A DNA stretch of 64,000 bases from Candidatus Firestonebacteria bacterium RIFOXYD2_FULL_39_29 (GCA_001778375.1 MFGV01000075.1:2354-66353); one strand, 5' to 3'. Shown: positions 11,855-49,838, counted from the first letter of the stretch. Numbers and translations: made by a program. The notes: generated from the sequence alone by a model not told the origin.

Positions 11855-11920
11855 CATCTTTAATCCAATATAATTTTATCTTTTCTATGTTATTAAGACT
11901 ATTTTCGCCTCTTAATATTT

Positions 11921-25577: not shown

Positions 25578-26167
25578 TTAGAAAAATACCTGTTAATCTC
25601 TGATTCGCTTATTCTGCGCGCCTTCTTTGGCGGTGTTAACTCAAAAATACTGTCCGGAATATCTTTGTCCAGGATAGGATCCGTAAATGAAAAAGAAAAT
25701 TTGTATTCACCCGAGCTGAATTCAGCTGCAGCCAAATCCGGAGATTCCGTCGTTTTCCTTGTAAAAACGGAATTTATATCAAGTCCTTTTATTTTAAGTT
25801 TACCGGTTTTATTTAATAAGATCGAAGCTAAAGAATCAGAGTCGGAATCAAATATTTCCCCTTCAAAATAAGCATTGTCCTGAACAAAGTATGCCTGAAT
25901 TTTATTGCCTTTTGAGGTCATCATAAAAAAAGGTTCATTGAAGAATCCCTTTATTTCAAAACGGAGCATGTCGGGAGATTTAACTGCCAGTATGGATTTT
26001 TTTTTGATTTTTGTACCGGGACAGGAATAAGTTGCCATTACGGAAGATTTTAGAGTTTTTATCTTTATAGCTTCAGTTGGTTTAACCTGAGGGCCTCCGC
26101 ATCCTGAAATAAGCAGGGCAATAATTATTGAAGTACTATTTAGACTCAGACTTTTTAAGTTCATCAA
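25565..26167 (-). CDS. lipoprotein, possibly LolB-like
   Basis: Lipobox LISGC. ~200 aa and immediately upstream of ispE, as lolB is in the conserved lolB-ispE arrangement. Confidence 0.4.
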   Translation of the reverse strand: MMNLKSLSLNSTSIIIALLISGCGGPQVKPTEAIKIKTLKSSVMATYSCPGTKIKKKSILAVKSPDMLRFEIKGFFNEPFFMMTSKGNKIQAYFVQDNAYFEGEIFDSDSDSLASILLNKTGKLKIKGLDINSVFTRKTTESPDLAAAEFSSGEYKFSFSFTDPILDKDIPDSIFELTPPKKARRISESEINRYFSKWNK

Positions 26168-28985
26168 GTTTTCTCCTTACAGAAGTATTTTCCATTTGTT
26201 TGAGGGATTTTTCATACATTTCCTTTGCTTTTGCAGATAATTTTTTAACCGAATAGATATCTCCCAGATGCTCAAATACAGTAGGGTCCTCATATCCCGA
26301 TTTTTTAAGTATTATAACAGCGCGTTCTATTTCTTTCTGTGCTTCATCAAATTTCCCCAGACGGTAATAAACCCAGCCCAGACTGTCAATATAAGCTCCA
26401 TTTTCAGGCTCGAGTTTTAAAGCTTCTGAAATCAGAGACACAGCTTCTTCAAGTTTTTCGTTACGGTCGGCATAAATATAGCCTGCATAGTTATATGCAT
26501 CCGCATATCTAGGATTTATGGCTATTACTTTTTTAAAGCAAGCTACGGCTTCTTCATATTTTGCCGTATGTTCTAATAACACACCCAGAGAATAGAGGGT
26601 CCGCTCGTCGTTTTCTTTTTTCTTTAAAATCTCTCTATAAGCAGCTTCAGCTTTTTCGTAGTTTTTAATCTCATAATAAGCTCCTCCTAAATACAGCAAA
26701 AGATCAATGTTATCAGGGATAATCTTTATGCCTTTTTCAAGAAGAGGTATCATCTTCGATTGTTCGTTATTTTTTGCGTAGAGATATGACAGGTAGATAT
26801 ATCCCAATGGATTTTTGAAGTCTAATTCCACAAATTTATTATAAGCAATAATAGCTTCGTCCTTTTTCCCAAGCTCAGTGTAATCTGACCCCATAATTTG
26901 ATATGCATCCGCATTATTAGGGTCGGATGCTGCAAGTGTTTTAGCAATTTCCAAAGAACCGTTAAAATCCTTTTCCTGATAAAGCATCACTGCAACTCTC
27001 TGCAAGCTGTCAAGATCAGAGGAATCCAGCTCTATTGCTTTTTTGAGATTTTCTATGGACTCTTTATATTTTTTCATCTGTCCGTAGGCCAGACCCATAT
27101 TTTTATAAACTCTGGCATCATAACCTGATAAGGAGAGAAGTTTCTTATATACTTCTATAGATTTCTCAGGTTGACCTTGAACTTGATATAATAAACCAAG
27201 AGCGAAAACAGGTGAAGTATATTCAGAGTTAATTTCTGCGGCTTTTTTGTAATTTTTCTCTGCCGAATTAAAATCCCCTTTTTTTCCATAAGCCAGTCCA
27301 AGATTAAAATAAGTAGTATCTGCCTTTGGATCTAATTCTATAACTTTATTGAACATATTAATTGCTTCGTCGGTTTTATCCTGTTTGTAATATATATTCC
27401 CGAGATAAAAATAAGCATCAGGGCTTATTGGTTCTTTTTGAATAATTCTGCTGCAGATCTCTATAGCCCGGTCGAATTTATCATTTTCTATATAAAATGC
27501 CGCGCTTTGAAGCAGTGTTTTTAAATCCCCGCTAAGAGACGACAACTTATCATAAATCTTTAATGCTTCATCAGGCTTTCCAATTCTTGTATACTCGCTT
27601 GCAAGGGTTTGGTTTATAACTTCTGACTCAGGATCTAAAGTTAAAGCTTTCTTGTATTTTTCGATTGCTTCATCGAAAAGCCAGTTGCGGGATAACAGCG
27701 CTCCTTGGCTATAATAAAGATAGGATTGATATGGCGGATAATATGCTTTTTTTTCTTCTTTTATAGCAGGCGCGGTTCCGCAGCCATGAAAAAATAGCGC
27801 AATAAAAGTAATAAAAAAAAGATACTTTAAAATCTTTCTAATAGAAATCTTATTAAAATCCATATCTCCGGTCATAAACTTTTCCAAAATCCCCTTTTTT
27901 CTCGCTGCGGCAGAAAAAAATGCTTTATGAAAACCAAGCGGAAGCAGCTTCTTAATGACTTTAGAAAGATTATATTCCTTTTTGAATCTATCATCAATCA
28001 AAATTTTAAATTCCTTTAAGGTATTTAAGCTGTAATTACCTTTATGAAGAGCTTTTTCCGCGGTTAAGGCCGCAAATTCTCCGCTTTTTATTGCATAATA
28101 TATTCCTTCACCTGTAACTGGATTTGCCAGACCGGCAGCATCTCCTATTAAAAGCCATCCGTCACCTGCTATTTTCTTCGGATAATCACATGGAATAATC
28201 CAGGTATGCGGTTTTGTAAGGACTTTTACTCCGTTTAAATATTTCTCGTGCATTTGAAAGTATTCTTTTTTTAGATTTACATTTTTTTCAAGTCCAAAGC
28301 CGGCAAAACCGTACTCTTTTCCGGAAACAAAAGGAAAATACCAGAAATAACCGGGAAGAAGCGTTTTGTCAAAATAAAACTCAAAATGCTCTTTTTCTCC
28401 AGGCCTAGGCGGTTCACAAATAGTATTTACAGCTCTAACTAAATGATGTTTATTAAAACCGGACAGTATCCTTGTAACAGGGGAAGATGCTCCTTCTGCA
28501 ATTATGACTATTTTTGCGCGTGCTTCTTTTACAAATACCAGACTGTTTTCAACTTTTTTATATTTAACACCGCAAACGCAGCCATTTTCCAGTATGGGCT
28601 CAAAAACCTCCGCTGCTTCAATGAGTTTTGCCCCGGATTTGACAGCTTTTTTCGCAAGCAATTCATCAAAATATTTTCTGTTGACAGTGGCTCCGAAATC
28701 ACCTTCAAAAGTCCCGGTATAGCTTAGGTTTTCAAGAAATACTTTTACCCCTATTATTTTTTTAATATTGACTGTATCAGAAAAAAGTTCTTTATAAGAA
28801 ATAATATCTATTTCATTTAATAATTTGATTGTTTTAGGAGTTAAGCCCCCTGCGCATATTTTTTTTCTTGGAAAAATAGTTTTTTCGAGGAGCAATACTT
28901 GAAAACCTTTTCTAGAAAGGAGATTTGCTGCGGTAGATCCTGCAGGTCCGGAACCTGTTATAATTACATCATAATTCATTTGCAC
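26136..28985 (-). CDS. FAD-dependent geranylgeranyl-reductase-like oxidoreductase fused via a TM helix to a ~12-TPR-repeat domain
   Basis: N-terminal DVIITGSGPAGSTAANLL (FAD/NAD Rossmann), GDAAG block, predicted TM ILKYLFFITFIALFF, then many TPR repeats. 949 aa. Confidence 0.65.
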   Translation of the reverse strand: MQMNYDVIITGSGPAGSTAANLLSRKGFQVLLLEKTIFPRKKICAGGLTPKTIKLLNEIDIISYKELFSDTVNIKKIIGVKVFLENLSYTGTFEGDFGATVNRKYFDELLAKKAVKSGAKLIEAAEVFEPILENGCVCGVKYKKVENSLVFVKEARAKIVIIAEGASSPVTRILSGFNKHHLVRAVNTICEPPRPGEKEHFEFYFDKTLLPGYFWYFPFVSGKEYGFAGFGLEKNVNLKKEYFQMHEKYLNGVKVLTKPHTWIIPCDYPKKIAGDGWLLIGDAAGLANPVTGEGIYYAIKSGEFAALTAEKALHKGNYSLNTLKEFKILIDDRFKKEYNLSKVIKKLLPLGFHKAFFSAAARKKGILEKFMTGDMDFNKISIRKILKYLFFITFIALFFHGCGTAPAIKEEKKAYYPPYQSYLYYSQGALLSRNWLFDEAIEKYKKALTLDPESEVINQTLASEYTRIGKPDEALKIYDKLSSLSGDLKTLLQSAAFYIENDKFDRAIEICSRIIQKEPISPDAYFYLGNIYYKQDKTDEAINMFNKVIELDPKADTTYFNLGLAYGKKGDFNSAEKNYKKAAEINSEYTSPVFALGLLYQVQGQPEKSIEVYKKLLSLSGYDARVYKNMGLAYGQMKKYKESIENLKKAIELDSSDLDSLQRVAVMLYQEKDFNGSLEIAKTLAASDPNNADAYQIMGSDYTELGKKDEAIIAYNKFVELDFKNPLGYIYLSYLYAKNNEQSKMIPLLEKGIKIIPDNIDLLLYLGGAYYEIKNYEKAEAAYREILKKKENDERTLYSLGVLLEHTAKYEEAVACFKKVIAINPRYADAYNYAGYIYADRNEKLEEAVSLISEALKLEPENGAYIDSLGWVYYRLGKFDEAQKEIERAVIILKKSGYEDPTVFEHLGDIYSVKKLSAKAKEMYEKSLKQMENTSVRRKLDELKKSESK

Positions 28986-29533: not shown

Positions 29534-31309
29534 ATGCCAATATTAAGGAGAAATCCTTTATTTTCCAATAAGGCAAGAAGAAGCCGTACTTTGCAAGTAG
29601 TCATAATAATCATTGTTTTTATTGGGCTTTTCTTTGGGGTTAAAGCTTTATTCTTCAAGAGTTCTAAGATTACCAACCATTTAAAGACAGCGAAAAACAG
29701 TATATTAAAAGGTAATTATGATACCGGTTTGGATGAGCTAAACAAAGCACTGGCGATTGATCCGGAAAATGCTCTTACATATGATGGTTTTGGTTATTTA
29801 TATGTACATAAAGGTGAAGTTGATAAAGCAAAAGAGTTCTATACAAAAGCAGAAGAAAAAAAGGTTACCAATAGTGGAATATTTGATCATAGAAATACAG
29901 GTTTTGATTATATTTCTAAGGGAAAATATTCTCTGGCTTTTGCAGAATTTGAACACTTGAATAAAATTGTCGAGCGGGATTTAAAAGGTGTCTTTGGGAT
30001 GGGATTGGCTTATCATGGTATGGGAAAAATAAAAGAAGCCATTGATACTTATGAAAATGCCTTGAATATCAGTCCAAAAAATACGCAAATAATCAGTTAT
30101 TTTGAAAAAGCAAAAAAAGAAAAGGAATCCGGAAGTATTGTATGTGTTTTAGACAGGAATGCTCAACCCCTTCTTAAAAAAGATGTTAAACACGGAAAAT
30201 CTCTGTATCCTGCCGAAAGCGCTACTGATAAAATAATTGGTATGAACTCTGAAGAATTTGGAAAATTTGGAATTGAATATGCTTTAAGAGAATATATTCC
30301 GGGTAACGAGATTACGCTTACTCTTGATTTAAATCTTCAAAAGGCTGCAACATCAGTTTTATACGACCAGATGGGATCAATTGTAATTTTAAAACCTCAA
30401 ACAGGGGAAATATTAGCGGCAGTCAGCCATCCAAAATTCAGCCCCAGTGGAATAGATAAGAAATTTAACAGTTATAAATACAATTCAAATAAAGTGTTTT
30501 TAAATCGTGCTTTTGAAATGCTGTATGAACCGGGTTCTATATGTAAAATTATTACAACATCAGCAGCAATAGAATCGAATGCAGACATGAAAGATATTTT
30601 TCCGGTAAATTGTAAAGGCTCTGTAGTAATAGATAAACAAACCTTCTGGTGCTGGGAAAAACACGGAAGTGTTAAAGATATTCAGCAAGCTATTGATTTA
30701 TCCTGCAATGTCGCTTTTGCCGCTATCGGAAATTATATCGGGAATGATAAATTGGTTGATTTTGCCAACAGATTTGGATTTAACAATCCCTTTGATATGC
30801 AGCTGCCTGTTGCAGCCAGCACAATAGGAATTGAAGCGGAAAATAAATTTGAGGTTGCTGAAAAAGCCAACGGTTTGGGAAAAAATTATAAAATAACGCC
30901 TCTTCAAGCAGCTATGCTTGCGGCTACAATTGCTAATAACGGGATTTGTATGAAGCCCTATCTCGTAAAAGAAATCAAAAACATTAAAGGGGATATAATT
31001 TATAAAAATGACCCTGTGGTATTAAAGAATACCGTAAAAAAAGAAACTGCTGAAACTGTTAAGAAACTTATGATAGATGCTGTTGTTCACGGACTCGGGA
31101 AAAAAGCTAAAGTTGACAATATTACGATCGCAGGTAAAACAGGTACAGCGAGATCTTCCAAAAAAGGTCTTGACGGTTGGTTTATCTTCCTTGCCCCGGC
31201 AGAAAATCCGGAAATTGCAGTAGCTATAATTTGTGAAACCGGCGGGAAAGGCATGGACGTCGCCGCTCCAAAAGCAAAATTGCTGGTACAGCAAATATTA
31301 AAGAAATAG
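29534..31309 (+). CDS. penicillin-binding protein transpeptidase domain with N-terminal TM and TPR region
   Basis: SICK (SxxK), SCN, KTGT transpeptidase motifs; N-terminal TM helix followed by TPR-like repeats. Confidence 0.75.
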   Translation: MPILRRNPLFSNKARRSRTLQVVIIIIVFIGLFFGVKALFFKSSKITNHLKTAKNSILKGNYDTGLDELNKALAIDPENALTYDGFGYLYVHKGEVDKAKEFYTKAEEKKVTNSGIFDHRNTGFDYISKGKYSLAFAEFEHLNKIVERDLKGVFGMGLAYHGMGKIKEAIDTYENALNISPKNTQIISYFEKAKKEKESGSIVCVLDRNAQPLLKKDVKHGKSLYPAESATDKIIGMNSEEFGKFGIEYALREYIPGNEITLTLDLNLQKAATSVLYDQMGSIVILKPQTGEILAAVSHPKFSPSGIDKKFNSYKYNSNKVFLNRAFEMLYEPGSICKIITTSAAIESNADMKDIFPVNCKGSVVIDKQTFWCWEKHGSVKDIQQAIDLSCNVAFAAIGNYIGNDKLVDFANRFGFNNPFDMQLPVAASTIGIEAENKFEVAEKANGLGKNYKITPLQAAMLAATIANNGICMKPYLVKEIKNIKGDIIYKNDPVVLKNTVKKETAETVKKLMIDAVVHGLGKKAKVDNITIAGKTGTARSSKKGLDGWFIFLAPAENPEIAVAIICETGGKGMDVAAPKAKLLVQQILKK

Positions 31310-33256: not shown

Positions 33257-33388
33257 GCTTAATTATACCTTATGGATGAAAATAATTACAGATATTTATG
33301 ACGTTATGCCAAAGCTCGGAGAGGTTCATATCAAATGAATCAACGTTAATGAAAAATAGCAGAGGCTTGAGACTGACTTGGAGTTTTA

Positions 33389-34537
33389 CTAAAAATAGAA
33401 TATCAGGTTAGCAGCAAATGAGGGCCCAAATTTTGCCATCGGGAATTTCATGATGGTAGTATTGTAATTGTATATAGTTTCAATATCCGACGAATTAAAT
33501 AACGGATACTTGCCGAATATGTCTATTCCTATTCCGGAGCTAAAACGCCATTCTATTCCATATGAAAGCGTAACGCTTGAAAAATTTAAAAATTCACCCC
33601 CGCCAATCGACCAGAGTTCATATCCCGGTCCTATAAAGAAATCAGTGGCAGGATTAATCGGATAAACACCATACAACGTAAAGGCCGTCCCAAATGAGGT
33701 TCCAAAGGACTTGACCGAATCAAGATTGTTATTTACTTTAAAAGAAATATTATCGACATATGCAAGAGCATGATCACCCGAAGATCTATAACCCATAAGC
33801 ATTGCAATATCAAAAGCAACATAGTCTGAAAAAAATGCCCTTCCGCCAAAAATAATAACATCAAGCATATTATTAAGCAATGAAACATCCGAGATAGTCA
33901 CACCATTTTTTGTGGTTGTTACTCCGGTAACGGGTGTAACATAATTAGAAAGATATCCAAAATAAAATGCGGTTGATTCTCTCCGCTGTATTATATAATG
34001 TTTTGCTTTGTTTTCAAATTCCGTTATAGGCAAAGCTGTTTTATAACTTGCCAGAATTTTTCCTGTTTCCGTTGATACGGCCCGGGCATTAACTGCGTAT
34101 GCATCACCTTCAATAGAAATGTCCCCTGTAATAAGTATTTTTACCCCTAAAACCTTCCCGACTTTTTCTACTGCAGACTGTTCGGTCATACCGGACAGAT
34201 AGATTTTCTGTTCTTCAAGCACTTTGCTTATCTGGTTTCTTTCAATCAGAATAATTGTATCACCTTTTTCTTTATTTAAAGCGCTTACCAGAAGTTCTGC
34301 TATTCCCGTGCCTATTTGACGCTGGCTCATGCTTAAATCAAGACAGTTAAAGTTGGAAACACCAAGAGTTACTGACTTGCCCATTCCCGATCTTTCTATT
34401 TCACCTGCAAATTTTCTGGACATTGTGGATAATTCGCGGTCAAGAAACGAGGCGTATGATATACTTGCAGTCATCAAAAATATAACTACAATTATCATCT
34501 TTTTTTCTGTTCTTCTGCTATGTTTTGTATTTAGCAT
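33389..34537 (-). CDS. secreted protein with CsgG-like N-terminal domain (paralog 1)
   Basis: Signal peptide; LGVSNFNC...QRQIGTGIAELLVSAL...ERNQISKVLEEQKIYLSGM...GKVLGVKILITGDI matches the CsgG/lipoprotein-activator-like fold signature; beta-rich C-terminus. Confidence 0.55.
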   Translation of the reverse strand: MLNTKHSRRTEKKMIIVVIFLMTASISYASFLDRELSTMSRKFAGEIERSGMGKSVTLGVSNFNCLDLSMSQRQIGTGIAELLVSALNKEKGDTIILIERNQISKVLEEQKIYLSGMTEQSAVEKVGKVLGVKILITGDISIEGDAYAVNARAVSTETGKILASYKTALPITEFENKAKHYIIQRRESTAFYFGYLSNYVTPVTGVTTTKNGVTISDVSLLNNMLDVIIFGGRAFFSDYVAFDIAMLMGYRSSGDHALAYVDNISFKVNNNLDSVKSFGTSFGTAFTLYGVYPINPATDFFIGPGYELWSIGGGEFLNFSSVTLSYGIEWRFSSGIGIDIFGKYPLFNSSDIETIYNYNTTIMKFPMAKFGPSFAANLIFYF

Positions 34538-34549
34538 CTTTGTACCCTT

Positions 34550-35854
34550 TTAAAAGTAAAAACCCAGTTTCATCTGCAGGAAAAGAGGTGAAAAAGTTCC
34601 CACAGGCATACTCACTTTATTAATCACCATATTATCATTTGGTACGGTTATCGAGATGTCTGTTCCGCTTAAGAAATAGTTGGCATAGATCCCCAGTCCA
34701 ACCCTTTTTTTTAATCTTAACTCATAACCTAAAATAGCCGTCGGAACAAATGTTCCGCCGGGCGAAGTTTTCTGAAAATAATGCACGCCAAAACCTGCGG
34801 ATATTTTGCCCGGACCAAGTTCCTCCAGCCATGATAAACTTGCGCAAACCGGTACATGAAACCATAATTCTTCTACACCTTCAAGTTTAGGACTGCCTGA
34901 AGAATCAATAATATCATATTTTACAGAGATACTTGTAAGGTTCGTAAATTGTGTTCCGAAATCAAATAATATATGTTCAAAAAATATGCGTTTTATTCCA
35001 AACCCTACTTTTACGACATCGCTAAATGTACTGATATTACTGTATGTCAGGGTTCCGTTTGATGCGGCTCCTGCGGTCTGGGTTACCCTGCCATAATTCC
35101 AACTTATATAAAAACACCAATCTTCAGGCGCTATAAGGTATTCATCCGCTTCCTTTCTGAGTTCTTTTAACGGAAGTTTAACAGATTCCGTTGAAAGAAC
35201 TTTTGCGGTCACGGTATCCACTACCCTTGCGCTTACAAGGTAAAAATCTCCGACTACAGAAATACTGCCGATTATTATTGCTTCTGTATTTAATATTTTC
35301 CCGGTTTTTATTGCGGAGGCCTCAGATATCAGACCGCTTAGACTTAGTTTCTGCTCTTCAAGTATTTGTTTCAAATCACTGCGCGAAGCGGTTTCAATAC
35401 TGTCTTTCTCGTATTCTACTATATAGTCTGTCATTAATTCCGCTATGCCAAAACCCACCTGTTGTTTAGCTAACCTGCTGTCTTCAGTTTGGAAAGGAAT
35501 AACAACAATCTTTATATTTTTTCGGGTATTTTCCTGGGCGGTTTTGTAAGATTTAATCAGATTTTCAACAAGGTTTATTATCTGTTTTTTTATGCCTGTA
35601 ATAACTGCTTTTGGAGTATCTTCTTTTCCTTCATCATCTTTTAAAACAGATACAATATTTTCTTTTTGCAGTGTTAATTCCCCAAATTGATCTGTCTTTA
35701 CTGTGCTTGTACTGCCATTTTCCTTGACTAAAGTGCCTACTACACGACTGCCGTCTTTTAAAAAGTATGTATCACAATATGCAGTGTTAATAAAAAAAAC
35801 AACTAAAAACAAGTAAATCCAAACTCCGGGTATTTTAGGACCAGATAACTTCAT
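34550..35854 (-). CDS. secreted protein with CsgG-like N-terminal domain (paralog 2)
   Basis: Signal peptide; VVIPFQTEDSRLAKQQVGFGIAELMTDYIV...LKQILEEQKLSLSGL...GKILNTEAIIIGSI. Confidence 0.55.
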   Translation of the reverse strand: MKLSGPKIPGVWIYLFLVVFFINTAYCDTYFLKDGSRVVGTLVKENGSTSTVKTDQFGELTLQKENIVSVLKDDEGKEDTPKAVITGIKKQIINLVENLIKSYKTAQENTRKNIKIVVIPFQTEDSRLAKQQVGFGIAELMTDYIVEYEKDSIETASRSDLKQILEEQKLSLSGLISEASAIKTGKILNTEAIIIGSISVVGDFYLVSARVVDTVTAKVLSTESVKLPLKELRKEADEYLIAPEDWCFYISWNYGRVTQTAGAASNGTLTYSNISTFSDVVKVGFGIKRIFFEHILFDFGTQFTNLTSISVKYDIIDSSGSPKLEGVEELWFHVPVCASLSWLEELGPGKISAGFGVHYFQKTSPGGTFVPTAILGYELRLKKRVGLGIYANYFLSGTDISITVPNDNMVINKVSMPVGTFSPLFLQMKLGFYF

Positions 35855-36020
35855 ATACCCCCATAACTGATAATTTTTTTATATATATTAATTATACACA
35901 AAATAAATATTATGTCAAGCCCTGTCTGCATCAAAGAGTGACATCTATGAAAGTGACTATCAAGACAAAAGAGTCCACTTATATATTTAACTGGAAAATA
36001 AAAACAACCAGGAAGGCTGG

Positions 36021-38153
36021 TCAGCGCTGGAGCAAATCCAATTCTGAGATAAGGTCATCACAACTTCTTAATTTAAAGGAAGTCTGATTTTTATTTTTAA
36101 TTGTTGGCGTATGGCTCGGATAAGACAACCAATACTTTCCGGAATCATCTTGAACTACATTGTAATTTGAAATGAATTGAAATACTATTTTAAATTTGCT
36201 CCAATTATTTCCATCTTTTGAATACGAAAGATTTACACTTTGACCTTGATAATTAAAATATGAAACAAATAATACGTTATTGTTATCACAGAATATATTT
36301 ATATTGGCAATATGTGCAGAATGTTTTATTTTCTCTGAAAGGTTTTCTGTATTCACCAATTCAACAGGTTTACTCCAGTTTTTGCAGTCACTTGATGACG
36401 CAATCATAAGTTGATCATATTTCCCACTATTGTTTTTAAAAAATATCGTCTGCCATATTGCCCAATAAATCCCTTTTTTATCACGGATTATTTTATTTTC
36501 ACCAAATAACGTATCTTTCGGCAGTTGATCGCAAATGGAGGCAATATCATTACCGCTTTTTCCAATTTTACTATATTCTATTTTTAAACCCTTTTCAACT
36601 CCGTTATATTTTAAAGTAGTTATCATCCCATCATTTAATGCATACACAGTTGGTGTGATATATACACTTTTCTTTATAAATATGGGATCTTCCCAATTGA
36701 CGCCTTTGTCATGGCTCAAACTCAAGTAATAACCTGGTTTATCGACTATCTTATCTCCTTCAGAAATTAAAGCCGAACTGTCTTGCCTAGTTTCAAATAC
36801 CACACAATAATCCCCGTTTGGACGCATATAGCTTCCGAGAAGAATGTTCCTCATATTTGAACTTAAAAACAGTTTCCTCGGAGTTGACCACTCATTTTTC
36901 TCCTTTGTATTATCAGTAGAAATATATATTTCCGTGTCTTTAAAGGTATAACCCTGCTGTTGCCAAACTATTATACTTTTTTGATTAGTCTCATCAAAAT
37001 ACATGCTGAATTTATCCACCCCGCCACAATCAACAATATTTATTTCACTGCTCCACATTTTATTGGCAGTCGGATGAGCATAAGGCGGTCTCTTTACTAC
37101 CTGCTCCCATTTGCTGGACTTTCCATGAAGCACATCGCCGGCTTTCTCGATATTGAATAATAAAAGTTCTTTTATTTTAGCACCCAAGTATTCAATATGA
37201 GACAAATAATCACTTTCGGTCATTTTTAATTCTCGTGTATTATTATTTGGATTGTTTCTAATATTTTTACACTTTTCTTTAAATATATCATTTGCTCTAT
37301 TTAATACTTCCTCGGCCGTCCTATAATCCTTCAATTCATCCATGCAAATCCTTCCAACCTCCATGCGCAACAGTATTTCCCATTCTTCGCTTAAATTATT
37401 TGCATGTTTAAACATCTCAACATATTCAATTACCGAATGCCTATATTCCCCTAAATAATAATATATTTTAGCAAGGCTAAATCTTGGTTTATCATAATTG
37501 CTGTCTTTATTCTTTGACTGCATAAATGCAGCAAACGCGCTCTGATAATTACCGCCGTCAAAGTATTCCAAGCCTTCATAGTATTGCTGTAGTGCATTTA
37601 ATGAATTTGTCGGCCTTACTTTAATTCTCATATTTTCGTCTAAGGATAATTTAATATCGATATTATTAATTATCTTAAAAGCCAATTCTTTTTCCAGGTC
37701 TATAAAATCATCGAATCGGCTTTCCACTTTTACGGTTTTTACTACTTTTCCCGTTTCGATATCCATTAATACCGCTTCTATTGTCAGTTTTTCTCCCTGC
37801 TTAATATAGCTGCCGTATAACACATACTTCGCACTGCCGATTTCTCCTATTTTTTTTGCCGTAGCCTCATCTACAAGCCCGGTTAAACCTAATTTCAGTT
37901 CTTTAATGATCCTTTGCATTCTTTCTCTTTCAATTATCCGGAAGGAATCGCATTTAGACAAATCTGTTATTAACATATCCATGATCCCTTTTGATAGCCA
38001 CTGGCATTCTTTGCCTTTGTTTTCAAAAGAAGCAACGGCAAAATTATCACGCACATTTTTGCTATTTTGCGCGGGTTCGCTTTGAGCATAGCCGTTATAC
38101 GGGCAGGCGATTATTATTAATATTGCCAGAATATATTTAATTGTTCTGTTCAT
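36021..38153 (-). CDS. secreted CsgG-like + TPR + BNR/Asp-box repeat protein
   Basis: Signal peptide; FAVASFENKG...ERERMQRIIKELKLGLTGL block; TPR-like middle; Asp-box motifs SHDKGVNW and SKDGNNWS. 710 aa. Confidence 0.55.
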   Translation of the reverse strand: MNRTIKYILAILIIIACPYNGYAQSEPAQNSKNVRDNFAVASFENKGKECQWLSKGIMDMLITDLSKCDSFRIIERERMQRIIKELKLGLTGLVDEATAKKIGEIGSAKYVLYGSYIKQGEKLTIEAVLMDIETGKVVKTVKVESRFDDFIDLEKELAFKIINNIDIKLSLDENMRIKVRPTNSLNALQQYYEGLEYFDGGNYQSAFAAFMQSKNKDSNYDKPRFSLAKIYYYLGEYRHSVIEYVEMFKHANNLSEEWEILLRMEVGRICMDELKDYRTAEEVLNRANDIFKEKCKNIRNNPNNNTRELKMTESDYLSHIEYLGAKIKELLLFNIEKAGDVLHGKSSKWEQVVKRPPYAHPTANKMWSSEINIVDCGGVDKFSMYFDETNQKSIIVWQQQGYTFKDTEIYISTDNTKEKNEWSTPRKLFLSSNMRNILLGSYMRPNGDYCVVFETRQDSSALISEGDKIVDKPGYYLSLSHDKGVNWEDPIFIKKSVYITPTVYALNDGMITTLKYNGVEKGLKIEYSKIGKSGNDIASICDQLPKDTLFGENKIIRDKKGIYWAIWQTIFFKNNSGKYDQLMIASSSDCKNWSKPVELVNTENLSEKIKHSAHIANINIFCDNNNVLFVSYFNYQGQSVNLSYSKDGNNWSKFKIVFQFISNYNVVQDDSGKYWLSYPSHTPTIKNKNQTSFKLRSCDDLISELDLLQR

Positions 38154-38965
38154 TTAGCCTCAATCCTTGTCCCGGGAATATTTTTCATACAAATATTTAT
38201 TTTTTCTTTCACTATTTGAACAATTTTCGAGTTAATTGTTATTCCCAGCAGTCTTTCATAATCAAACATGGCATGCCGGTAATCTTTTAACTCAAAATAA
38301 CATTCGGCCCTTAAAAACAATGAATCGTAGTAGGAATAGTCACCTTCTTTTATTTTCATGGATTCAAATATGGCTTTATCATATTCCCCGGAATAATAAA
38401 ACCTCACGACGTTTGATAACCGGGGATCAATTGTTTTTACTTTATTTGAAATGTTCTCTTTATTTGCTGCGGTATTATTAAGTAATTTTTTAACAATTAT
38501 TCCGGAAAGTTTCACTATTTCCACCAGGCTTCCGGTTATTTCCTCTGATCTTAGTAATTTGGCTGTTTCAACATCATGGATATGAATATTTATTTTCAAC
38601 TCCGTCCCGGAAAGGACAAAACCTCCGGTTACAATATTATCCGTACCTATTATTTTCCCTACCTTTATAGTTAATTCTTCAGGCAAAGCCCCCGTTAAAC
38701 TTCGTTTTTGTTCCTTAATGATCTCATCAAGATTTTCTCTTTCCAAAACCTGAATATTATTATTCAATAAATCGATTGTGACCAGCTCTTTCAGATATAC
38801 TCCTAAATACTCATATTTATCACTGCCGGTTGAATTTTCCAGGGGAAATACTACAATATTTTTGGATCCTGCAGGATACAAATAACCGCATAACACAAAT
38901 ACTATCATAATAAATATTGCCCTGCTTTTCATAATTTGATTCCCTCTTATTTTAATTTTGACCAT
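38150..38965 (-). CDS. secreted CsgG-like domain protein with TPR-like C-terminus
   Basis: Signal peptide; VVFPLENSTGSDKYEYLGVYLKELVTIDL...ERENLDEIIKEQKRSLTG...GKIIGTDNIVTGGF. Confidence 0.5.
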   Translation of the reverse strand: MVKIKIRGNQIMKSRAIFIMIVFVLCGYLYPAGSKNIVVFPLENSTGSDKYEYLGVYLKELVTIDLLNNNIQVLERENLDEIIKEQKRSLTGALPEELTIKVGKIIGTDNIVTGGFVLSGTELKINIHIHDVETAKLLRSEEITGSLVEIVKLSGIIVKKLLNNTAANKENISNKVKTIDPRLSNVVRFYYSGEYDKAIFESMKIKEGDYSYYDSLFLRAECYFELKDYRHAMFDYERLLGITINSKIVQIVKEKINICMKNIPGTRIEAK

Positions 38966-40182
38966 TTAACACGGATCAAATCTTTTTCCTTGATAACACT
39001 ATCAAGTAAAACAAAATAATGCTGTTTTTCTTCTTCAATAGAAACCTTCCTGTATTTTGAAACCCATATTTTTCCATTTGACTTAAATGCTTTTAGTCGT
39101 CCACCGAATTCAGAAATATCCATAAATGAAACATCCAGATCAATCCTGTATAAAATATTTTCTCTGATTAGATAAAGCCCGTCCTTCCCAGGAACAGACC
39201 CTTTCGACAAGTATATCATTTCGGAATTATTTAATCGAAGTGCCCCGATTATATTATTATCATTAACAAGTTCACAGCATTCCAATACATCATTTCTTTC
39301 TTTCGAATTAATTTCCGGATCAATATTTCTGTCCGAAAGCTTCCAGGTCGACCCGGTGTAAACATAGGTTTTCCATTCTTTGTACTTTGGGTGAAGTCCC
39401 TCTGAATCATATGCTATCCAGTCCGAAGAATAGATATTATATGATTCATAGGATTTCGTTGCATTAACACAAAGGACATTATTATCAATAAAAAAAGGAG
39501 CTTGAAATCCGTTCCATCCACTGATTTCACAGGAATAAGTGCACCATTTTCCTTTTTGATAGTATCTTAAGCGCGAAGCTTTGAACTCTTTAATAGCTGT
39601 CTTTTCATAAAAAATAATGGAAATATTTTTCATGACCGGCTTGTCAGGACAAATATAAAAGACAGTTCCATCAGTATTTACAAATGGCTCAATAGTTTTA
39701 CCGTTTCCAACAAAATGCATCTTACCGTTGTTCTTATCAATGGCAAGAGCAAGAATATCTTCATACGGTCCGGTTTGTATCCGTCCTATTTTAGGATCAT
39801 AAATAATGGCAAAATAATCAAAGTCTACTGTCTCGTTTTTTATTAAAACAATAATCCAAATACGCCCTTCTGAGTCAAGAAAAAGTCTTTTTAAGGATTT
39901 AAAATACGGAATTATTGACTTTGTTTGATCTATTAAACGGCCTAAAGATTGGATCTTTATCTCCGCTCCATTTTTTCCCTCTGCTATCAGAGCAAAATCA
40001 GATTCATCTTCCGACGACTTAAAATACCAAACTGTTTCATCCTGACCTAAAATCGGGCGCATGAAGACTGTTCGAGTATTTGCATCTAAAAGAGGATTTC
40101 TGACAATTGATAACGACTGATCTTCAGCAGACGATACTAATGAAGCTAATAATACTATTATAAAAATCATACCATTCATCAT
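38947..40182 (-). CDS. secreted hypothetical protein (beta-rich)
   Basis: Signal peptide. No recognised motifs. Overlaps the neighbouring genes in an operon-like arrangement. Confidence 0.45.
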   Translation of the reverse strand: MMNGMIFIIVLLASLVSSAEDQSLSIVRNPLLDANTRTVFMRPILGQDETVWYFKSSEDESDFALIAEGKNGAEIKIQSLGRLIDQTKSIIPYFKSLKRLFLDSEGRIWIIVLIKNETVDFDYFAIIYDPKIGRIQTGPYEDILALAIDKNNGKMHFVGNGKTIEPFVNTDGTVFYICPDKPVMKNISIIFYEKTAIKEFKASRLRYYQKGKWCTYSCEISGWNGFQAPFFIDNNVLCVNATKSYESYNIYSSDWIAYDSEGLHPKYKEWKTYVYTGSTWKLSDRNIDPEINSKERNDVLECCELVNDNNIIGALRLNNSEMIYLSKGSVPGKDGLYLIRENILYRIDLDVSFMDISEFGGRLKAFKSNGKIWVSKYRKVSIEEEKQHYFVLLDSVIKEKDLIRVKWSKLK

Positions 40183-40289
40183 GTAATCCTTTAGACGGAC
40201 TTTCTTTTATTTGAATCCATTTTTTTCGACATTCATACACCTTTGAAAAAGTTATGACATTTTACATTAAAATAATCTTCAATATCAGA

Positions 40290-42524
40290 TTAATTTCCAA
40301 ATCTCTTTCTATTTTTGCTTTTAACATACATGCCAGATTTAATATCTCTCATATTAATTTCTTCTAAAACATTTGGAATATTTTCTTTTTTTATTCTGAT
40401 CCAAGTATCATTGTTGCTTATCCAGAGGGTGTCATAAACATCAATAAACGTACCGCTCAAGTCTATATCTTCGCTATAAAACTCCCAGGGAATATTAATT
40501 AACCTGTGAATAGAGTCACGTTTTTTTAAAAACAATCCGGGGCTCTTAAGCGTAAATATAACTATTTCCGGTTTACATTCTATGGTTTGCCCTATATTTT
40601 CAGCTCCAAACATATTACTTATTTTAGCAGATAGCTTATTTTCTTCCTTTATTTGAAGTTTTGGATCAGATTTTAATTCAGATATATAAGATTTTGCCCA
40701 ATCGTCTTTATCGAAAACATAATAACTTTTCTTGGAGAAATTATTTAACGTTGTAATATATGTTTTTCCTTCAGAAGTCTTGTTGAATCCCTCCAAAAAC
40801 AACTCACGGACGTCAGTTTTGCTAAAAACTTTTGCAATATTTGGAGATTTCCCAGTAAATGTAATAATTTCTCTGAATGCATCTGAAGGCATTCTGGTTA
40901 ACTTAGCAGGCAATGGTTTTCCCTTAATAAATAAAGTATCAGGAGCTGAAAAATATAAATCCATTTCTCCATTAATCAGTTTCAGTTGAAAATTATTATT
41001 ATCTTTATATTTATCAAGATATGCTTTATAAATACTCTCTATTATATATGTACCATCACTTTTTAATATAGCCACATGCATGTTTGCAAAGACCAACCAT
41101 ATACTATCATTCGAGTCTATTCCAAAAGATATAAAATAACTATCCTTGAGCTCTGCATTGACTGATCCAATTTGGCCCCAAAAATCATAGGCGGAGACAA
41201 CTTTTACAGTATTTTTTCCATCATATTTGTAAAGAGTTTTATGACCGAATCTTAATTCTCTTTTGTCCCAGTAGTAATTATTTTTACTGTCAGATATAAC
41301 TTTACCGTAATTCTGAAATTCCGCACAATATTTTTCAACTTTCAAAGAACTTAATGTTTTGGCAGCGTTCTTCTTGAGGATCTGAAAAAGAGTACTTGGC
41401 CTCAATCCATTACTTATATCATTTATAAGAAGAATATTTCCGTCAGGAAGTTTTAATATTTGTTTTATATTTACAAGATTTACTCCTTGAGAAGCGTCAA
41501 AAGAATACAATTTACCATCAGGAAGAATTAGATTTACGCCGCGTCCTTCTCCTTTCAGCATCCACACAAAACCATTGTCTTCAAGCATAAAATATTGCCG
41601 GTCTTTAGGATAAAATGTATTTTCTACAACATTTGTAGCATATTTTATGAACTTACTCTCGGAAACATAGAACAATTCATAGACAAGTTTATCAATCATA
41701 CTCAATACCCATAATTTTCCATCATCTGAATGATGATGTAAAACTGGAACAAAGCTGTTCTCATTAAAAACAGCATCTTTTTTAAATTCCAGCACATCAT
41801 TGTTTGTACTGTAATTTATCTTTGCACATTTAAAATCATTAACAAATTGGCTGATATAAACAGCTCCTGATATCTCAAAAATGTCATTTACAATTATCAA
41901 ACCTAATTTATCGCACGGTATTTTATGAATATTTTTGTTCTTAATAAGTATGATATTTTTATCGAAAAGGCTCTCATGCGCTGTCTTTTCTGTGGCCCAG
42001 ATCCAAACATTACCGGATGCCTCTTCAGAGAACATTATTGAATCGACATTTATGCGCCCAACGCCGGATTGTTTTCCTTGAATGCGCTCTTTAATAAGAC
42101 CATTGATTTTTATTTCCCCGTCAATATTAACAGTTATTCTCTTCCCATTCTTTGTTAGAAAGAAATTAAATATTTTGGAGTTTTTCTCCAGTATTTTCAG
42201 TTTCCCGCCTTCAACCGTTTCCAAAGTATAAATATCTTTATGTTTGCACAAAGCATATAACGTATCAAAACACCAGATGCGTATAATTCCGGAATCTTTA
42301 TCGGCAATTTTTCTAAGTCCGTCGGGGGAATACTTGTAAAGTTCGGAATCTATTACTGTCCATACATTTGAAGCTGAATCTCTTTCCGTTTTAAAAGAAG
42401 CCGCTTTTTCAATATTAGTATCAAGGTAAATATTTTTTGCTGAAATATTGACTTCTTCAGATAGGCAAAGGCAAACAATTAAGGTTAAAAATAAAACTGT
42501 CTTGAGAAAAATATATTTTTTCAT
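40290..42524 (-). CDS. secreted beta-propeller repeat protein (two-component-regulator-propeller-like repeats)
   Basis: Signal peptide; repeated xGxxWIxTxxGL-type blocks (SGNVWIWATEKTA, NGFVWMLKGEG, DSIWLVFANMHVAILKSDG, YDTLWISNNDTWIRI). 744 aa. Confidence 0.5.
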   Translation of the reverse strand: MKKYIFLKTVLFLTLIVCLCLSEEVNISAKNIYLDTNIEKAASFKTERDSASNVWTVIDSELYKYSPDGLRKIADKDSGIIRIWCFDTLYALCKHKDIYTLETVEGGKLKILEKNSKIFNFFLTKNGKRITVNIDGEIKINGLIKERIQGKQSGVGRINVDSIMFSEEASGNVWIWATEKTAHESLFDKNIILIKNKNIHKIPCDKLGLIIVNDIFEISGAVYISQFVNDFKCAKINYSTNNDVLEFKKDAVFNENSFVPVLHHHSDDGKLWVLSMIDKLVYELFYVSESKFIKYATNVVENTFYPKDRQYFMLEDNGFVWMLKGEGRGVNLILPDGKLYSFDASQGVNLVNIKQILKLPDGNILLINDISNGLRPSTLFQILKKNAAKTLSSLKVEKYCAEFQNYGKVISDSKNNYYWDKRELRFGHKTLYKYDGKNTVKVVSAYDFWGQIGSVNAELKDSYFISFGIDSNDSIWLVFANMHVAILKSDGTYIIESIYKAYLDKYKDNNNFQLKLINGEMDLYFSAPDTLFIKGKPLPAKLTRMPSDAFREIITFTGKSPNIAKVFSKTDVRELFLEGFNKTSEGKTYITTLNNFSKKSYYVFDKDDWAKSYISELKSDPKLQIKEENKLSAKISNMFGAENIGQTIECKPEIVIFTLKSPGLFLKKRDSIHRLINIPWEFYSEDIDLSGTFIDVYDTLWISNNDTWIRIKKENIPNVLEEINMRDIKSGMYVKSKNRKRFGN

Positions 42525-42597
42525 GAAATCCCCCTCGTAATAATCTTTATAAATGTATTATAATTGTTCTCTATTCATATAGCAACCCCCAAATTCA

Positions 42598-45513
42598 TCA
42601 CGATAAAATCTTACTCAGCACCGATAGATCGATCGGGATTTGGAGGATTCTTTCGTCTTTGGTTTTATAAAGGAAATGGTGTTTTTCGATTAGGTATTCG
42701 AAAAGTTCTTTTGTGATGGCTACGTCATGTTTGCAATATTCTATTATCAGGTCTATTTTACCCTCTTTAAACCATTGCAGGGACTGCAGGCCGTCGGAGG
42801 ATTTTCCTTTGTTCAGGTTTACTGAACTTAAATGGTTAAGGGACAAACGGAAACCAAGCTGGTCGTAAACCAGATCCAGCATATCAAGAGTGGGGATTTT
42901 TGTAAAATCAATATTGGTGTAACCTCGGAGGACACCCCAATCAAAACGTTTAATATTAAAACCGACTACCAGATCCGCCTGAAGGAACATATTTATCATC
43001 TCTTTTACTTTATCCTCGGTAAAGGAATAGTATTTGTCATCTTTAAAGGAATATACCACACCGACAGCAAGACCCATAAGATGCGGGTTGTTCCAGCCTC
43101 CGACTTCGGCGGCGCTTCTTTGTGTTTCCGCGTCGAAAACCAGGACGTTTTTGCCTTTCAGTTTTTGTTTTACATCTTCTTCGTCTATACCGGCTTCAAC
43201 AAGTTTTAGAAGGTCTGTTTTATCCTTATGAACTAATTCAACACAATCCAGCTTATCCGTACTGTTTATAAAACTATTTAGCAGGGTTATCGCGACATTT
43301 TTATCTAAAGGTTTATTACCGCTCCCGCATTTTGAGGATTGTATGCAGGAAGGGCAGCCAAAATCACACGGGCAGCTGTTTAACATCTCAAGAGTCGTCT
43401 TCATCAGATCAGGGGCTAATTCATAAGCTTTCTCCGAAAGACCCACGCCTCCGGGATGCGCGTCGTAAATAAATATAGCGGGACATTTCAGATTCCCGTT
43501 AAACTCCATTGAAACACCGCCTATATCCTGGCGGTCAGAGAGAGTAAGTAACGGCAGCATAGATATTACGGCGTGTTCTATTGCGTGAATACCCCCGGCA
43601 AAATCACCGATATCACACGTAATGATCTTTCCTTTAAGAGCATCAGGTATCTCCATCCAGATGGAAACCGTTTCAAATATATGCGGAGGCAGTGTGAGTT
43701 CATGCTCGTCAAATATCACCTGGCTGTATATCTTTTTCCTGACATAACCTACAACTTTTTCCGTAACCCGGACTTTCCCAAGTTTTATTATTATCTCTCC
43801 CAGCTGCTTTTGTTTGAAAGTATCAATAACTTCTATTTCTTCGGTGGCTCTTGTTTCCGTAAAATAATCAACGTCCGCTTCCTTTACTCTTACTTTTTTT
43901 GCGGTAAGGTCAAGCTCAATAACTTCATATTGACTCCCGGAATGCAGGTAAATGGCGTTCTGATGACATTCCCGCAGTACTCTGGGATAATCTACCTCAC
44001 CTATTACTTTATTTTTTGCGGCATCAACGACGACAAAAGAATCTCCAATAGACCTGATGGACAAGAACCTTGAAGGCTGTCTTTCAAAACTGTGGTATTT
44101 TCCGTCATTACTTTTTTGAAGTTTGTTATCCCTGGTCAGCTCGCTCAGGAAATATGGCAATGTATCGCCGTAAATATCTTTATCAGTTTCGACATCTAAA
44201 GGAGATTCAGAAGCTGCGCAGGCCAGATGGGCCTTTGAGATAACCGGATTATGAAAATCAACAACTGCGGATTCACACGGTTTTTCGAATAATTTCACGG
44301 GATTGGTCATAAAATACTGATCCAGCGCATCCTGAAGCCCGATAAGGATTACGAGCGCATCGCCTACTCTTCCCACCCTTCCGCTTCTCTGCCACGTGCT
44401 CATGATACTGCCCGGATATCCGACCAGAATACATACATCCAAACCACCTATATCAATACCGACTTCAAGCGCAGAGGTTGAGATCACGCCGACAAGTTCT
44501 TCTGAAAACAGTTTTCTTTCGATCTCCCGCCTTTCCTCCGGCAAATATCCGGATCTGTAAGCTGCGATCTTACTTGTGTATTTTAAACCAAGCGCAGAGA
44601 TCCACTGATAAATCAGCTCCGTTACCTTTCTGGCTTTTGTGAAAACAATCGTTTTCATATCATTACTCACGCATTCTCTGAGCAGGTGAGCCGCTTCCGT
44701 ATACGGACTTTCAGATGGGTTCCAGAGTAAAAAATACTTTGAGGAAGAAGGCGCGCCGTTCTTTTCCACCATTTCAAAATCCAACCCTGTAAGTCCGGTA
44801 ACAAATTCGTAAGCGTTTGATATTGTAGCGCTGGAACAGATAAATACAGGATCACTTCCATAATGCCGGCAGATCCTTCTTAAACGTCTTATTATATGCG
44901 CCACATGGGAGCCAAAGACACCTCTATAAGAATGTACTTCATCTATAACCACATATTTTAAATTCTTGAAAAACTCGATCCAGCCGCCATGATACGGTAA
45001 AATACCAAAATGAAGCATGTCCGGATTTGTCAGTATAATTCTTGGCAACTCTTTTTTTATTTTAGAACGCTGATAGGCCGAAGTATCTCCGTCATAGATA
45101 GAAGCTAAAGGAAAATCCCCGGCAAAAAGATCTTTTTTAAAATCCATAACGGTATTAAACTGGTCATGCGCAAGAGCCTTAATAGGATAGAGATAAAGCG
45201 CCCGGGTATTTGGCTCCTTAAGGATACTGTCAATTACGGGGATATTATATATGAGAGTTTTTCCGCTGGCTGTCGGCGTTACAACACAGACATTTTTATT
45301 TTTTCGTATGAGCTCAATTGCCTCAGTCTGATGCGAGTAGAGTTGTTTTAACCCCTGAAAATGAAGATAATTTATTAAAGACTCTGATATCCCTTCCGGA
45401 AAATCAGAATAAGACCCTTTTTTAGCCTGGATATAATGGGCATGAACAAGACATTTGGAATGACTGCTGTCACTGCTTAGATGATTTATAAACGACTTTA
45501 TGTCTGAAACCAT
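42598..45513 (-). CDS. MrfA-like DEAD/DEAH helicase with DUF1998 zinc ribbon, fused to a C-terminal DnaQ-like DEDDh 3'-5' exonuclease (MrfB-like)
   Basis: Walker A TPTASGKT, DEVH box, motif VI QRSGRVGR. DUF1998-type Cys cluster CPCDFGCPSC...C. C-terminal exonuclease motifs LVFDAETQ (Exo I), VGFNIKRFDWGVL (Exo II), YCKHDVAITKELF (Exo III, H-x4-D). Confidence 0.75.
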   Translation of the reverse strand: MVSDIKSFINHLSSDSSHSKCLVHAHYIQAKKGSYSDFPEGISESLINYLHFQGLKQLYSHQTEAIELIRKNKNVCVVTPTASGKTLIYNIPVIDSILKEPNTRALYLYPIKALAHDQFNTVMDFKKDLFAGDFPLASIYDGDTSAYQRSKIKKELPRIILTNPDMLHFGILPYHGGWIEFFKNLKYVVIDEVHSYRGVFGSHVAHIIRRLRRICRHYGSDPVFICSSATISNAYEFVTGLTGLDFEMVEKNGAPSSSKYFLLWNPSESPYTEAAHLLRECVSNDMKTIVFTKARKVTELIYQWISALGLKYTSKIAAYRSGYLPEERREIERKLFSEELVGVISTSALEVGIDIGGLDVCILVGYPGSIMSTWQRSGRVGRVGDALVILIGLQDALDQYFMTNPVKLFEKPCESAVVDFHNPVISKAHLACAASESPLDVETDKDIYGDTLPYFLSELTRDNKLQKSNDGKYHSFERQPSRFLSIRSIGDSFVVVDAAKNKVIGEVDYPRVLRECHQNAIYLHSGSQYEVIELDLTAKKVRVKEADVDYFTETRATEEIEVIDTFKQKQLGEIIIKLGKVRVTEKVVGYVRKKIYSQVIFDEHELTLPPHIFETVSIWMEIPDALKGKIITCDIGDFAGGIHAIEHAVISMLPLLTLSDRQDIGGVSMEFNGNLKCPAIFIYDAHPGGVGLSEKAYELAPDLMKTTLEMLNSCPCDFGCPSCIQSSKCGSGNKPLDKNVAITLLNSFINSTDKLDCVELVHKDKTDLLKLVEAGIDEEDVKQKLKGKNVLVFDAETQRSAAEVGGWNNPHLMGLAVGVVYSFKDDKYYSFTEDKVKEMINMFLQADLVVGFNIKRFDWGVLRGYTNIDFTKIPTLDMLDLVYDQLGFRLSLNHLSSVNLNKGKSSDGLQSLQWFKEGKIDLIIEYCKHDVAITKELFEYLIEKHHFLYKTKDERILQIPIDLSVLSKILS

Positions 45514-47881: not shown

Positions 47882-48071
47882 AATGAATGCCTCCAAGCAT
47901 TGTGTTCCGGACATTTAAGTCCCAGAAGAATTATATCGTTACCGCTAATTTCCAGAATCGATTATAACACATCCGAACAAATATTTGTAACTTGGTTTTT
48001 TATAATCCGGCGGATGCTTCTACCGCCTTCCTTCAATCGTCAATTGTCATTGGTCAATCGTAAATTTCTTT

Positions 48072-49698: not shown

Positions 49699-49838
49699 TC
49701 ATACCTCCGTTCAGAACGTTACACGTTACAACGTTACTCACGTTTTACAATATAGTATTTTTATATATTTTATTTAGCGGAGGTTTTTATCCGCCTACCT
49801 TAAATCGTCAATTGTCATTCGTCAATCGTAAATATCTT

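Follow-up and report, generated by a model that had tools for sequence, protein, structure and literature searches.

A variable six-gene region with LpoB/CsgG-like modules in a Candidatus Firestonebacteria genome

Six genes and a shared N-terminal module

The window analysed here, a stretch of 64,000 nucleotides from Candidatus Firestonebacteria bacterium RIFOXYD2_FULL_39_29 (GCA_001778375.1, MFGV01000075.1:2354-66353), contains six consecutive minus-strand genes, termed P6 to P1 in the direction of transcription, four of which (P1–P4) share an N-terminal module related to LpoB and CsgG. An initial annotation had placed six consecutive minus-strand genes here, and open reading frames (ORFs) with exactly those coordinates were recovered. 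The first gene, P6 (40290–42524, minus strand), encodes a secreted protein of 744 aa with a hydrophobic, signal-like N-terminus that belongs to a tiny tandem-paralog family, and is followed on the same strand by P5 (38947–40182), an ORFan of 411 aa with a signal-peptide-like N-terminus. P4 (38150–38965, minus strand) encodes 271 aa, probably 260 aa if translation begins at the ATG at 38932, and combines an LpoB/CsgG-like module with a short tetratricopeptide repeat (TPR) segment. The 710-aa product of P3 (36021–38153, minus strand) comprises a lipobox-like signal (IIAC), the module (aa 34–165), TPR-like helices (aa 171–299) and a propeller with bacterial neuraminidase repeat (BNR)/Asp-box motifs (aa ~383–707). 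P2 (34550–35854, minus strand, 434 aa) has a signal peptide, an N-terminal beta motif (aa ~28–100), an LpoB/CsgG/FlgO-like module (aa 111–232) and a predicted outer-membrane beta-barrel (aa 239–434), while P1 (33389–34537, minus strand, 382 aa) has a signal peptide without Cys, an LpoB/CsgG/FlgO-like module (aa 53–174) and a predicted outer-membrane beta-barrel (aa 184–382).

The tight packing described earlier holds for P4/P3, in which the P4 stop and the P3 start overlap by 4 nt (ATGA), and for P2/P1, which are spaced by 12 nt; it does not hold for P6/P5 or P3/P2, which are separated by 107 and 166 nt, respectively. The reported 19-nt overlap of P5 and P4 is probably not real but produced by the choice of start codon: the ATG at 38932, located 14 nt past the P5 stop, has a strong Shine-Dalgarno sequence (AAGAGGGA) in front of it. 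Signal peptides had been claimed for all six proteins, and inspection by eye finds a short polar stretch and then 10–15 hydrophobic residues in each N-terminus, a pattern that agrees with this assignment. The Cys in the signal region is lipobox-like in P3 (IIAC), atypical in P4 (FVLC) and P2 (TAYC), and missing from P1.

A terminator-like hairpin (36005–36023, minus strand), consisting of a 7-bp stem and a subsequent T-run (TTTTTATTTT), begins at the P3 stop codon. Upstream of P2 lies a sigma-70 promoter (35891–35918, minus strand) with a perfect consensus, TTGACA-16-TATAAT (12/12), which is the top consensus match across the 10-kb region scanned. Because this hairpin and the 12/12 promoter both fall into the 166-nt P3/P2 gap, the region is predicted to be organised in two transcription units, P6-P5-P4-P3 and P2-P1. 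Upstream of P6, a promoter-like site (TTGCTA-17-TATAAT, 10/12; 42557–42585, minus strand) was identified as a consensus match only, and the P6 ATG is preceded by the Shine-Dalgarno sequence GAGGGGGA.

A CsgG/lipoprotein-activator-like N-terminal domain had been proposed for four paralogs, and the profile searches bear this out: the Pfam family CsgG (PF03783) exceeds its gathering score in P1–P4, with E-values from 4e-14 (P1) to 3.6e-7 (P4) and 28–53 bits against a cut-off of 20.8, the best stretches covering profile positions ~6–99 of 210. FlgO, LpoB and TolB_N are secondary Pfam matches within the P1–P4 set. FlgO (PF17680, cut-off 22.6) passes in P1 (29.1 bits, E 1e-6) and P2 (27.4 bits) and stays below in P3 (19.6 bits), and the Pfam LpoB domain is over its cut-off in P3. 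The NCBIfam equivalog models are not reached: the one for CsgG gives 17 bits where 505 are required, and the LpoB equivalog TIGR02722 scores 30.6 bits in P3 against 110.55, with no match in P1, P2 or P4. Pairwise BLASTP among P1–P4 yields E-values far beyond chance, namely 4e-30 (P1/P2), 3e-17 (P3/P4) and 1e-7 to 1e-12 (between members of different pairs), and a motif core, ER..L..I..EQK..L.G, is common to the four ~120-aa modules.

Structure models were obtained with AlphaFold2 (AF2) from alignments of 14 sequences for P3 and three sequences for P1. In the P3 model the N-module and the helices after it reach a predicted local distance difference test (pLDDT) score of 85–93; the elements follow the order beta-alpha-beta-alpha-alpha-beta-beta-beta-alpha, and the strands at residues 110–119, 122–131 and 136–146 are connected by turns of 2–4 residues without insertion and lead into a helix. 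The P1 N-module shows the same topology at a pLDDT of 60–84. In Foldseek searches against the PDB the nearest structures to the P1 and P3 modules were LpoB, GNA1162, FlgT and the TolB N-domain. The P3 module aligns with LpoB 4q6z over 114 columns at a root-mean-square deviation (rmsd) of 2.8 Å and a template modelling (TM) score of 0.65, and the LpoB structures 4q6z, 4q6l and 2mii were matched at E 6e-7 to 3e-4, rmsd 2.8–4.2 Å and TM of at most 0.66. CsgG lies outside the top 50 for P3 and ranks 13th for P1 with an E-value of 0.08, as compared to 6e-7 for LpoB.

An alpha/beta core of this kind is present in LpoB, GNA1162, FlgT, FlgO and the N-domain of TolB, and the characterised cores serve as docking or oligomerisation units at the periplasmic face of the outer membrane. 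It is likewise common to the LptE-, PelC-, CsgG- and PqiC-type outer-membrane lipoproteins, and the CsgG pore depends on four extra strands per subunit, in the form of two beta-hairpins, that build a 36-strand pore and are absent from the other groups (2026 paper in the Journal of Biological Chemistry (JBC), PMC13631591). No such membrane hairpins are found in the AF2 models of the P1 and P3 modules, which leave no room for them. As modelled, the N-module is a minimal LpoB-type alpha/beta core, and the modules are homologous to CsgG, yet not CsgG-type channels, since without the two membrane-spanning hairpins they should be unable to form a pore of that type. The argument from CsgG to rings and pores made in the initial annotation is hence not directly transferable to a module that lacks the pore-forming hairpins.

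P3 and P4 carry additions behind the module. TPR and BNR/Asp-box repeats had been assigned to one paralog, and in P3 both were recovered: in the AF2 model confident TPR-like helices (aa 171–299) precede a C-terminal beta region. The Pfam family BNR_2 scores 25.1 bits in P3, under its cut-off of 31.4; one canonical Asp-box, SHDKGVNW, is accompanied by three or four degenerate ones, and at four or five sites the Asp-box is conserved among 17 aligned homologs. In Foldseek the C-terminal region matches propellers of sialidases and of the glycoside hydrolase families GH43, GH32 and GH93 (E 2.5e-6 and weaker). The columns conserved in at least 80% of the 17 homologs are the Asp-box S/D/W/P positions at P3 ~422, 480–490, 558–564, 587–593 and 647–651; no Arg, Tyr or Glu that could represent the sialidase Arg triad or Tyr/Glu pair occurs in these columns, and the only conserved Asp residues of the propeller family are at Asp-box or strand-motif positions, a check that is to be read as indicative, given diverged sequences and a model of moderate quality. 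The C-terminal region of P3 is thus a BNR propeller that probably binds rather than catalyses. P4, for which no such addition had been described, shows TPR_2 after the module at E 2e-4 (Pfam).

P1 and P2, paralogous along their whole length (29% identity over 347 aa, E 4e-30), carry a different addition. Their C-terminal ~200 aa contain 12–15% charged residues, as opposed to 23–31% in the other domains of the cluster, together with 16–19% aromatic residues and 10% Gly (P1: 12% charged, 19% aromatic), and the alternation of hydrophobicity exceeds that of shuffled controls (z=1.1 and 2.8). The C-termini read ...LIFYF in P1 and ...LGFYF in P2, with hydrophobic residues at -3, -5, -7 and -9; this beta-signal pattern ending in F is restricted to P1 and P2 among the 44 ORFs of the window, and the barrel signature is found in none of 93 module-bearing proteins of related loci. 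On the strength of the composition, the alternation and the C-terminal beta-signal, the C-domain of P1 and P2 is predicted to be an integral outer-membrane beta-barrel. This putative fusion of module and barrel, which the initial annotation does not mention, is the most unusual feature of the region. P2 further contains an extra beta motif at ~28–100 (YFLKDGSRVVGTLV...) that P1 does not have, with weak NCBIfam matches to LA_3334, Lepto_7_Nterm (Leptospira) and PTPDL, all below the cut-offs.

A replaced slot and the conservation of its parts

The six genes occupy a variable island (33270–42601) between conserved MrfA-type helicase and CinA genes, delimited by a break in blastn collinearity. Against the Firestonebacteria locus L007, collinearity at ~80% nucleotide identity ends at 42602 and returns at 33269, with nothing similar in between, and the GC content is 31–37% in the island as opposed to 39–41% in the flanks. 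The flanking genes Mem_trans, MrfA-type helicase, CinA, LigT and TPR-transpeptidase are in the same order in Firestonebacteria RIFOXYA2_FULL_40_8, and their products are 89–92% identical to those of this relative with the exception of LigT (77%) and the partial Mem_trans (80%). The slot of the relative is filled by an unrelated 11.4 kb encoding a GH4 glycosidase, a 567-aa protein, two P6-family proteins with 33% identity to P6 and a DUF4139 protein, and no CsgG-like gene was found in it. The content of the slot holding P6–P1 is thus variable. A mobile element was rejected as the explanation: the borders hold neither tRNA nor integrase genes, the island is not framed by direct or inverted repeats, and D1, the longest direct repeat, merely reflects the module that P3 and P4 have in common as paralogs. 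An anti-phage defence island was likewise rejected, PADLOC giving no matches.

The initial annotation had treated the six genes as a multi-paralog operon and a candidate envelope system. Only the P4–P3 pair recurs, at loci L001, L002, L010, L014, L015 and L016, and nothing else of the six recurs together; P5 is an ORFan, no relatives of P1 and P2 were detected, and the slot of the relative differs. Co-conservation of the six genes is therefore absent, whereas the assignment of the N-terminal domains to the CsgG/LpoB group holds. P4 orthologs adjoin P3 orthologs in L001 (38% identity), another Firestonebacteria genome in which the pair is located near gidA/parAB, and in L002 (33%). The region is a mosaic of three parts, namely P6 (with P5), the widely conserved P4–P3 pair and the separately transcribed P2–P1 pair.

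The N-terminal region of P3 type was detected in 134 of ~185,000 species genomes, from Planctomycetota, Myxococcota, Bacteroidota, Spirochaetota and others, at least two adjacent paralogs are present in 55 of 83 related loci, and the relatives bear the database name 'CsgG/HfaB family protein'. The description of the composition as new stands, in that nothing in the searchable literature describes such clusters. The clusters of L002, L010 and L013 begin with the gene for an extracytoplasmic function (ECF) sigma factor, and genes for a PDZ protein and a protease of HtrA type are embedded in L015; these links in relatives point to an envelope function. Around the L002 cluster lie glycosyltransferase and dTDP-sugar genes.

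Several of these loci show arrangements of their own. In L002 (6367–16250), L010 (1951–12643) and L013 (1279–8066), genes for an ECF sigma factor, an anti-sigma-like protein, a protein without assignment and a CsgG-like protein of 360–414 aa are followed by small TPR and large TPR-BNR paralogs, and the CsgG-like protein has a conserved alpha/beta C-domain with the motifs PE.H.NR...DPAAETE ... SC.ARLE; this arrangement has the appearance of an envelope operon under ECF control that is as yet uncharacterised. In Bacteroidota (many loci, L044–L088; e.g., L066 9323–12729) a strongly conserved adjacent pair encodes proteins of ~440 and ~694 aa, with the module at ~240–350 in the former and N-terminal in the latter, and the pair in Myxococcota encodes ~225 and ~393 aa. 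Compared with the window, these uncharacterised 'CsgG/HfaB family' clusters with TPR/BNR proteins share the architecture and adjacency of P4 and P3 (L001, L002, L010, L014, L015, L016), but the clusters of L002, L010 and L013 possess an ECF sigma/anti-sigma pair and a third paralog type with the conserved alpha/beta C-domain, both missing in the window, which contains the (predicted) barrel-fused P1 and P2 as well as P5 and P6 instead.

CsgG-like proteins of 355–414 aa in planctomycete-type clusters were considered as equivalents of P1 and P2 and rejected, as they differ by their alpha/beta C-domain. A word-indexed search for relatives of P1 and P2 retrieved nothing beyond an incomplete copy of P1 itself, and two metagenome scans returned none with peptide patterns that were poorly chosen; neither result proves absence.

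For P6, only three homologs were found among 5.8 billion sequences, and the family, which is fast-evolving and restricted to Firestonebacteria, occurs at loci without any CsgG-like gene. Tandem paralogs are present in L004 (4610–14129), L006 (6399–14327) and L008 (969–7437), with 2–3 P6-family genes in a row; a gene for a DUF4139 protein follows them in L004 and L006, and the gene ahead of them in L004 encodes a 7TM-PAS histidine kinase. Two beta-propeller proteins had been proposed at this end of the cluster. For P6 there is weak family-level support, with Reg_prop matched in four of eight family members (best E 2e-6) though not in P6 itself, and with the family profile matching virginiamycin B lyase, a 7-bladed propeller, at E 0.007, so that P6 is possibly built of Reg_prop-like beta-propeller repeats. 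For P5 the label is unsupported: apart from one Reg_prop motif at E 0.11 neither Pfam nor the PDB gave a match, and a phmmer search of 1.84 billion representatives retrieves P5 itself alone. P5 as a diverged paralog of P6 was rejected on a hhalign probability of 5.8% against the P6 family.

A candidate scaffold and its competitors

The tentatively preferred reading, to which a probability of roughly 45% is assigned, is that of a lineage-specific, fast-replaced island of envelope genes in which the LpoB-like modules probably act as a scaffold beneath the outer membrane and not as a CsgG-type channel. The modules of P1 and P2 would be held under the outer membrane by their own fused integral beta-barrel, and those of P3 and P4 by a lipid anchor or by protein contacts. 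Assembled, possibly as a mixed oligomer, the four modules could form a scaffold beneath the membrane that would present TPR surfaces for the binding of proteins and a non-catalytic BNR propeller for the binding of glycan or peptidoglycan in the periplasm. P6 and P5 would not be obligate partners; they would be co-transcribed as passengers and stem from a separate family that evolves fast. Several observations weigh against this proposal. The C-domain of P1 and P2 has no Pfam or PDB profile match even at E 10, and the AF2 model of the P1 C-domain, built from the three-sequence alignment, consists of scattered hairpins at pLDDT <40; the signal-region Cys is not kept among orthologs, which makes lipid anchoring uncertain; no flagellar, polysaccharide or envelope-biogenesis genes are found nearby; beyond P4–P3 there is no sign of interaction among the six proteins, and because the gene set is not conserved an obligate complex is disfavoured.

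The strongest competing view, which is doubtful but carries appreciable weight, is that six functionally unrelated secreted or surface proteins accumulated in a recombination-prone slot, for instance under diversifying selection by phages or predators, and form no joint complex. Such co-location would fit the clean replacement of the slot in a close relative, the 33% identity of P6 where flank proteins are ~90% identical, the ORFan P5, the occurrence of the modules at other loci elsewhere, the lower GC content relative to the flanks and the two predicted transcription units. It is harder to reconcile with the translational coupling of P4 and P3, which are adjacent across phyla, with the full-length paralogs P1 and P2 lying 12 nt apart, and with one docking-type module in four proteins, which is more than mere co-location predicts. 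A regulatory role on peptidoglycan synthases or hydrolases, with LpoB-like modules extending from the outer membrane to penicillin-binding proteins (PBPs) and CpoB/YbgF-like TPRs, is improbable, although LpoB is the best structural match and its Pfam domain passes in P3, a weak YbgF/CpoB TPR match exists, and a TPR-transpeptidase is encoded at 29534–31309, three genes downstream of P1. LpoB activates PBP1B by binding the UB2H domain of this class A PBP, and the long, disordered linker of LpoB spans the periplasm. P1–P4 have no such linker, the module beginning ~16 residues past the putative Cys; furthermore, the LpoB equivalog stays far under its cut-off, LpoB is not known from multi-paralog clusters, and the relative, though lacking these genes, also retains the nearby PBP, whose gene is not part of the island.

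A comparably low probability is given to export or processing of an exopolysaccharide in the manner of Pel, alginate or PNAG (poly-N-acetylglucosamine), in which a PelC-like periplasmic ring would guide the polymer to a barrel like that of PelB, AlgE or PgaA, while TPRs would serve as scaffold and the propeller would resemble a glycosidase. The parts run parallel, with a ring-type core, a predicted barrel, TPRs and a sialidase/GH43-like propeller (for PelC/PelB see PMC13631591), and the glycosyltransferase and dTDP-sugar genes around the L002 cluster would agree with it; this neighbourhood is, however, confined to that one locus, no synthase, glycosyltransferase or cyclic di-GMP (c-di-GMP) receptor is encoded in the island or the 64 kb, the P3 propeller is without conserved catalytic-type residues, and the porins of known polysaccharide exporters are larger than a predicted barrel of ~200 aa (~10 strands). 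Least probable by far is a true CsgG-type channel that would pass unfolded substrates such as curli-like amyloid. CsgG is the top-scoring Pfam family in P1–P4 and relatives carry its name, but the matches cover less than half of the profile, the ~120-aa module is without transmembrane hairpins, the structural match to CsgG is poor, and no Pfam or NCBIfam match to the partners curlin (CsgA/B), CsgE/F or HfaA/D was found in the six proteins or the flanking genes; a curli-type channel was ruled out on the missing hairpins and the missing partner genes, and a flagellar ring on gene context.

Among the closest known systems, the outer-membrane lipoprotein LpoB and the Neisseria DUF799 lipoprotein GNA1162 resemble the P1 and P3 modules in their compact alpha/beta fold (Foldseek E 6e-7 to 6e-5, rmsd 2.8 Å, TM ~0.65); in the window, by contrast, four paralogs occupy one locus, are fused to a predicted barrel, to TPRs or to a BNR propeller, and have no long linker. 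With CsgG/HfaB the proteins share the sequence homology of the core (PF03783 over cut-off) and the envelope setting, but neither the two beta-hairpins per subunit nor the curli or holdfast partner genes, and membrane insertion in P1 and P2 is apparently left to a separate, fused (predicted) barrel. FlgO, FlgP and FlgT form rings beneath the outer membrane as parts of the flagellar H-ring/basal disk. The FlgO match in P1 and P2 and the structural match to FlgT recall these proteins, but no flgP, flgT or motor genes are present in the island or the 64-kb window. PelC-PelB and LptE-LptD also unite an alpha/beta core with an outer-membrane barrel, and PelB has TPRs too (PMC13631591), whereas in P1 and P2 the core and a predicted small barrel (~200 aa) would be joined in one polypeptide; Pel and Lpt genes are absent, and no sequence-level likeness to PelC or LptE was detected.

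The alpha/beta core of LpoB, PelC, LptE, PqiC and CsgG is a recurrent block in machines that transport or assemble material at the outer membrane, and if the barrel fusion is true, P1 and P2 would represent a further way to anchor it. A more far-reaching proposition, which is rather unlikely, holds that P1 and P2 constitute an undescribed class of outer-membrane protein with a ring-forming core fused to its own barrel, that together with P3 and P4 they form a hetero-oligomeric gate or tether, and that the multi-paralog clusters (>100 species genomes, ECF-headed in L002, L010 and L013) encode an uncharacterised envelope machine. Clusters of P3/P4 type occur in many phyla with function unassigned, a gap in the knowledge of the bacterial envelope. 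Caution is warranted in two respects, since the label 'CsgG' need not mean a secretion pore and since the six genes are a strain-variable mosaic and no conserved apparatus.

Other features of the window

The remainder of the window encodes housekeeping functions and anaerobic energy metabolism, and the FliI-family matches in it belong to Rho. The penicillin-binding transpeptidase at 29534–31309 (plus strand) has an N-terminal TPR, an uncommon architecture, and is 89% identical to its counterpart in the relative. A 949-aa protein (26136–28985, minus strand) has a FAD-binding domain of monooxygenase type at its N-terminus and, in addition, a long array of TPRs. An SNF2-type helicase of 1159 aa (2130–5609, minus strand) shows a sub-threshold likeness to the anti-phage helicases DISARM DrmD and DpdE (169 bits against a cut-off of 610).

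An intergenic element of ~60 nt, made up of four tandem heptamers, approximately (A/G)ATTGAC, and a subsequent GC hairpin (GGCGG...CCGCC), is located at 48009–48065 and 49782–49841 in the window. It is missing from the border of the window's own slot and is found in L007 (14555–14618) in the opposite orientation at the slot border of the relative. Five tRNA genes are clustered within ~1.1 kb at 10781–11855 on the minus strand.

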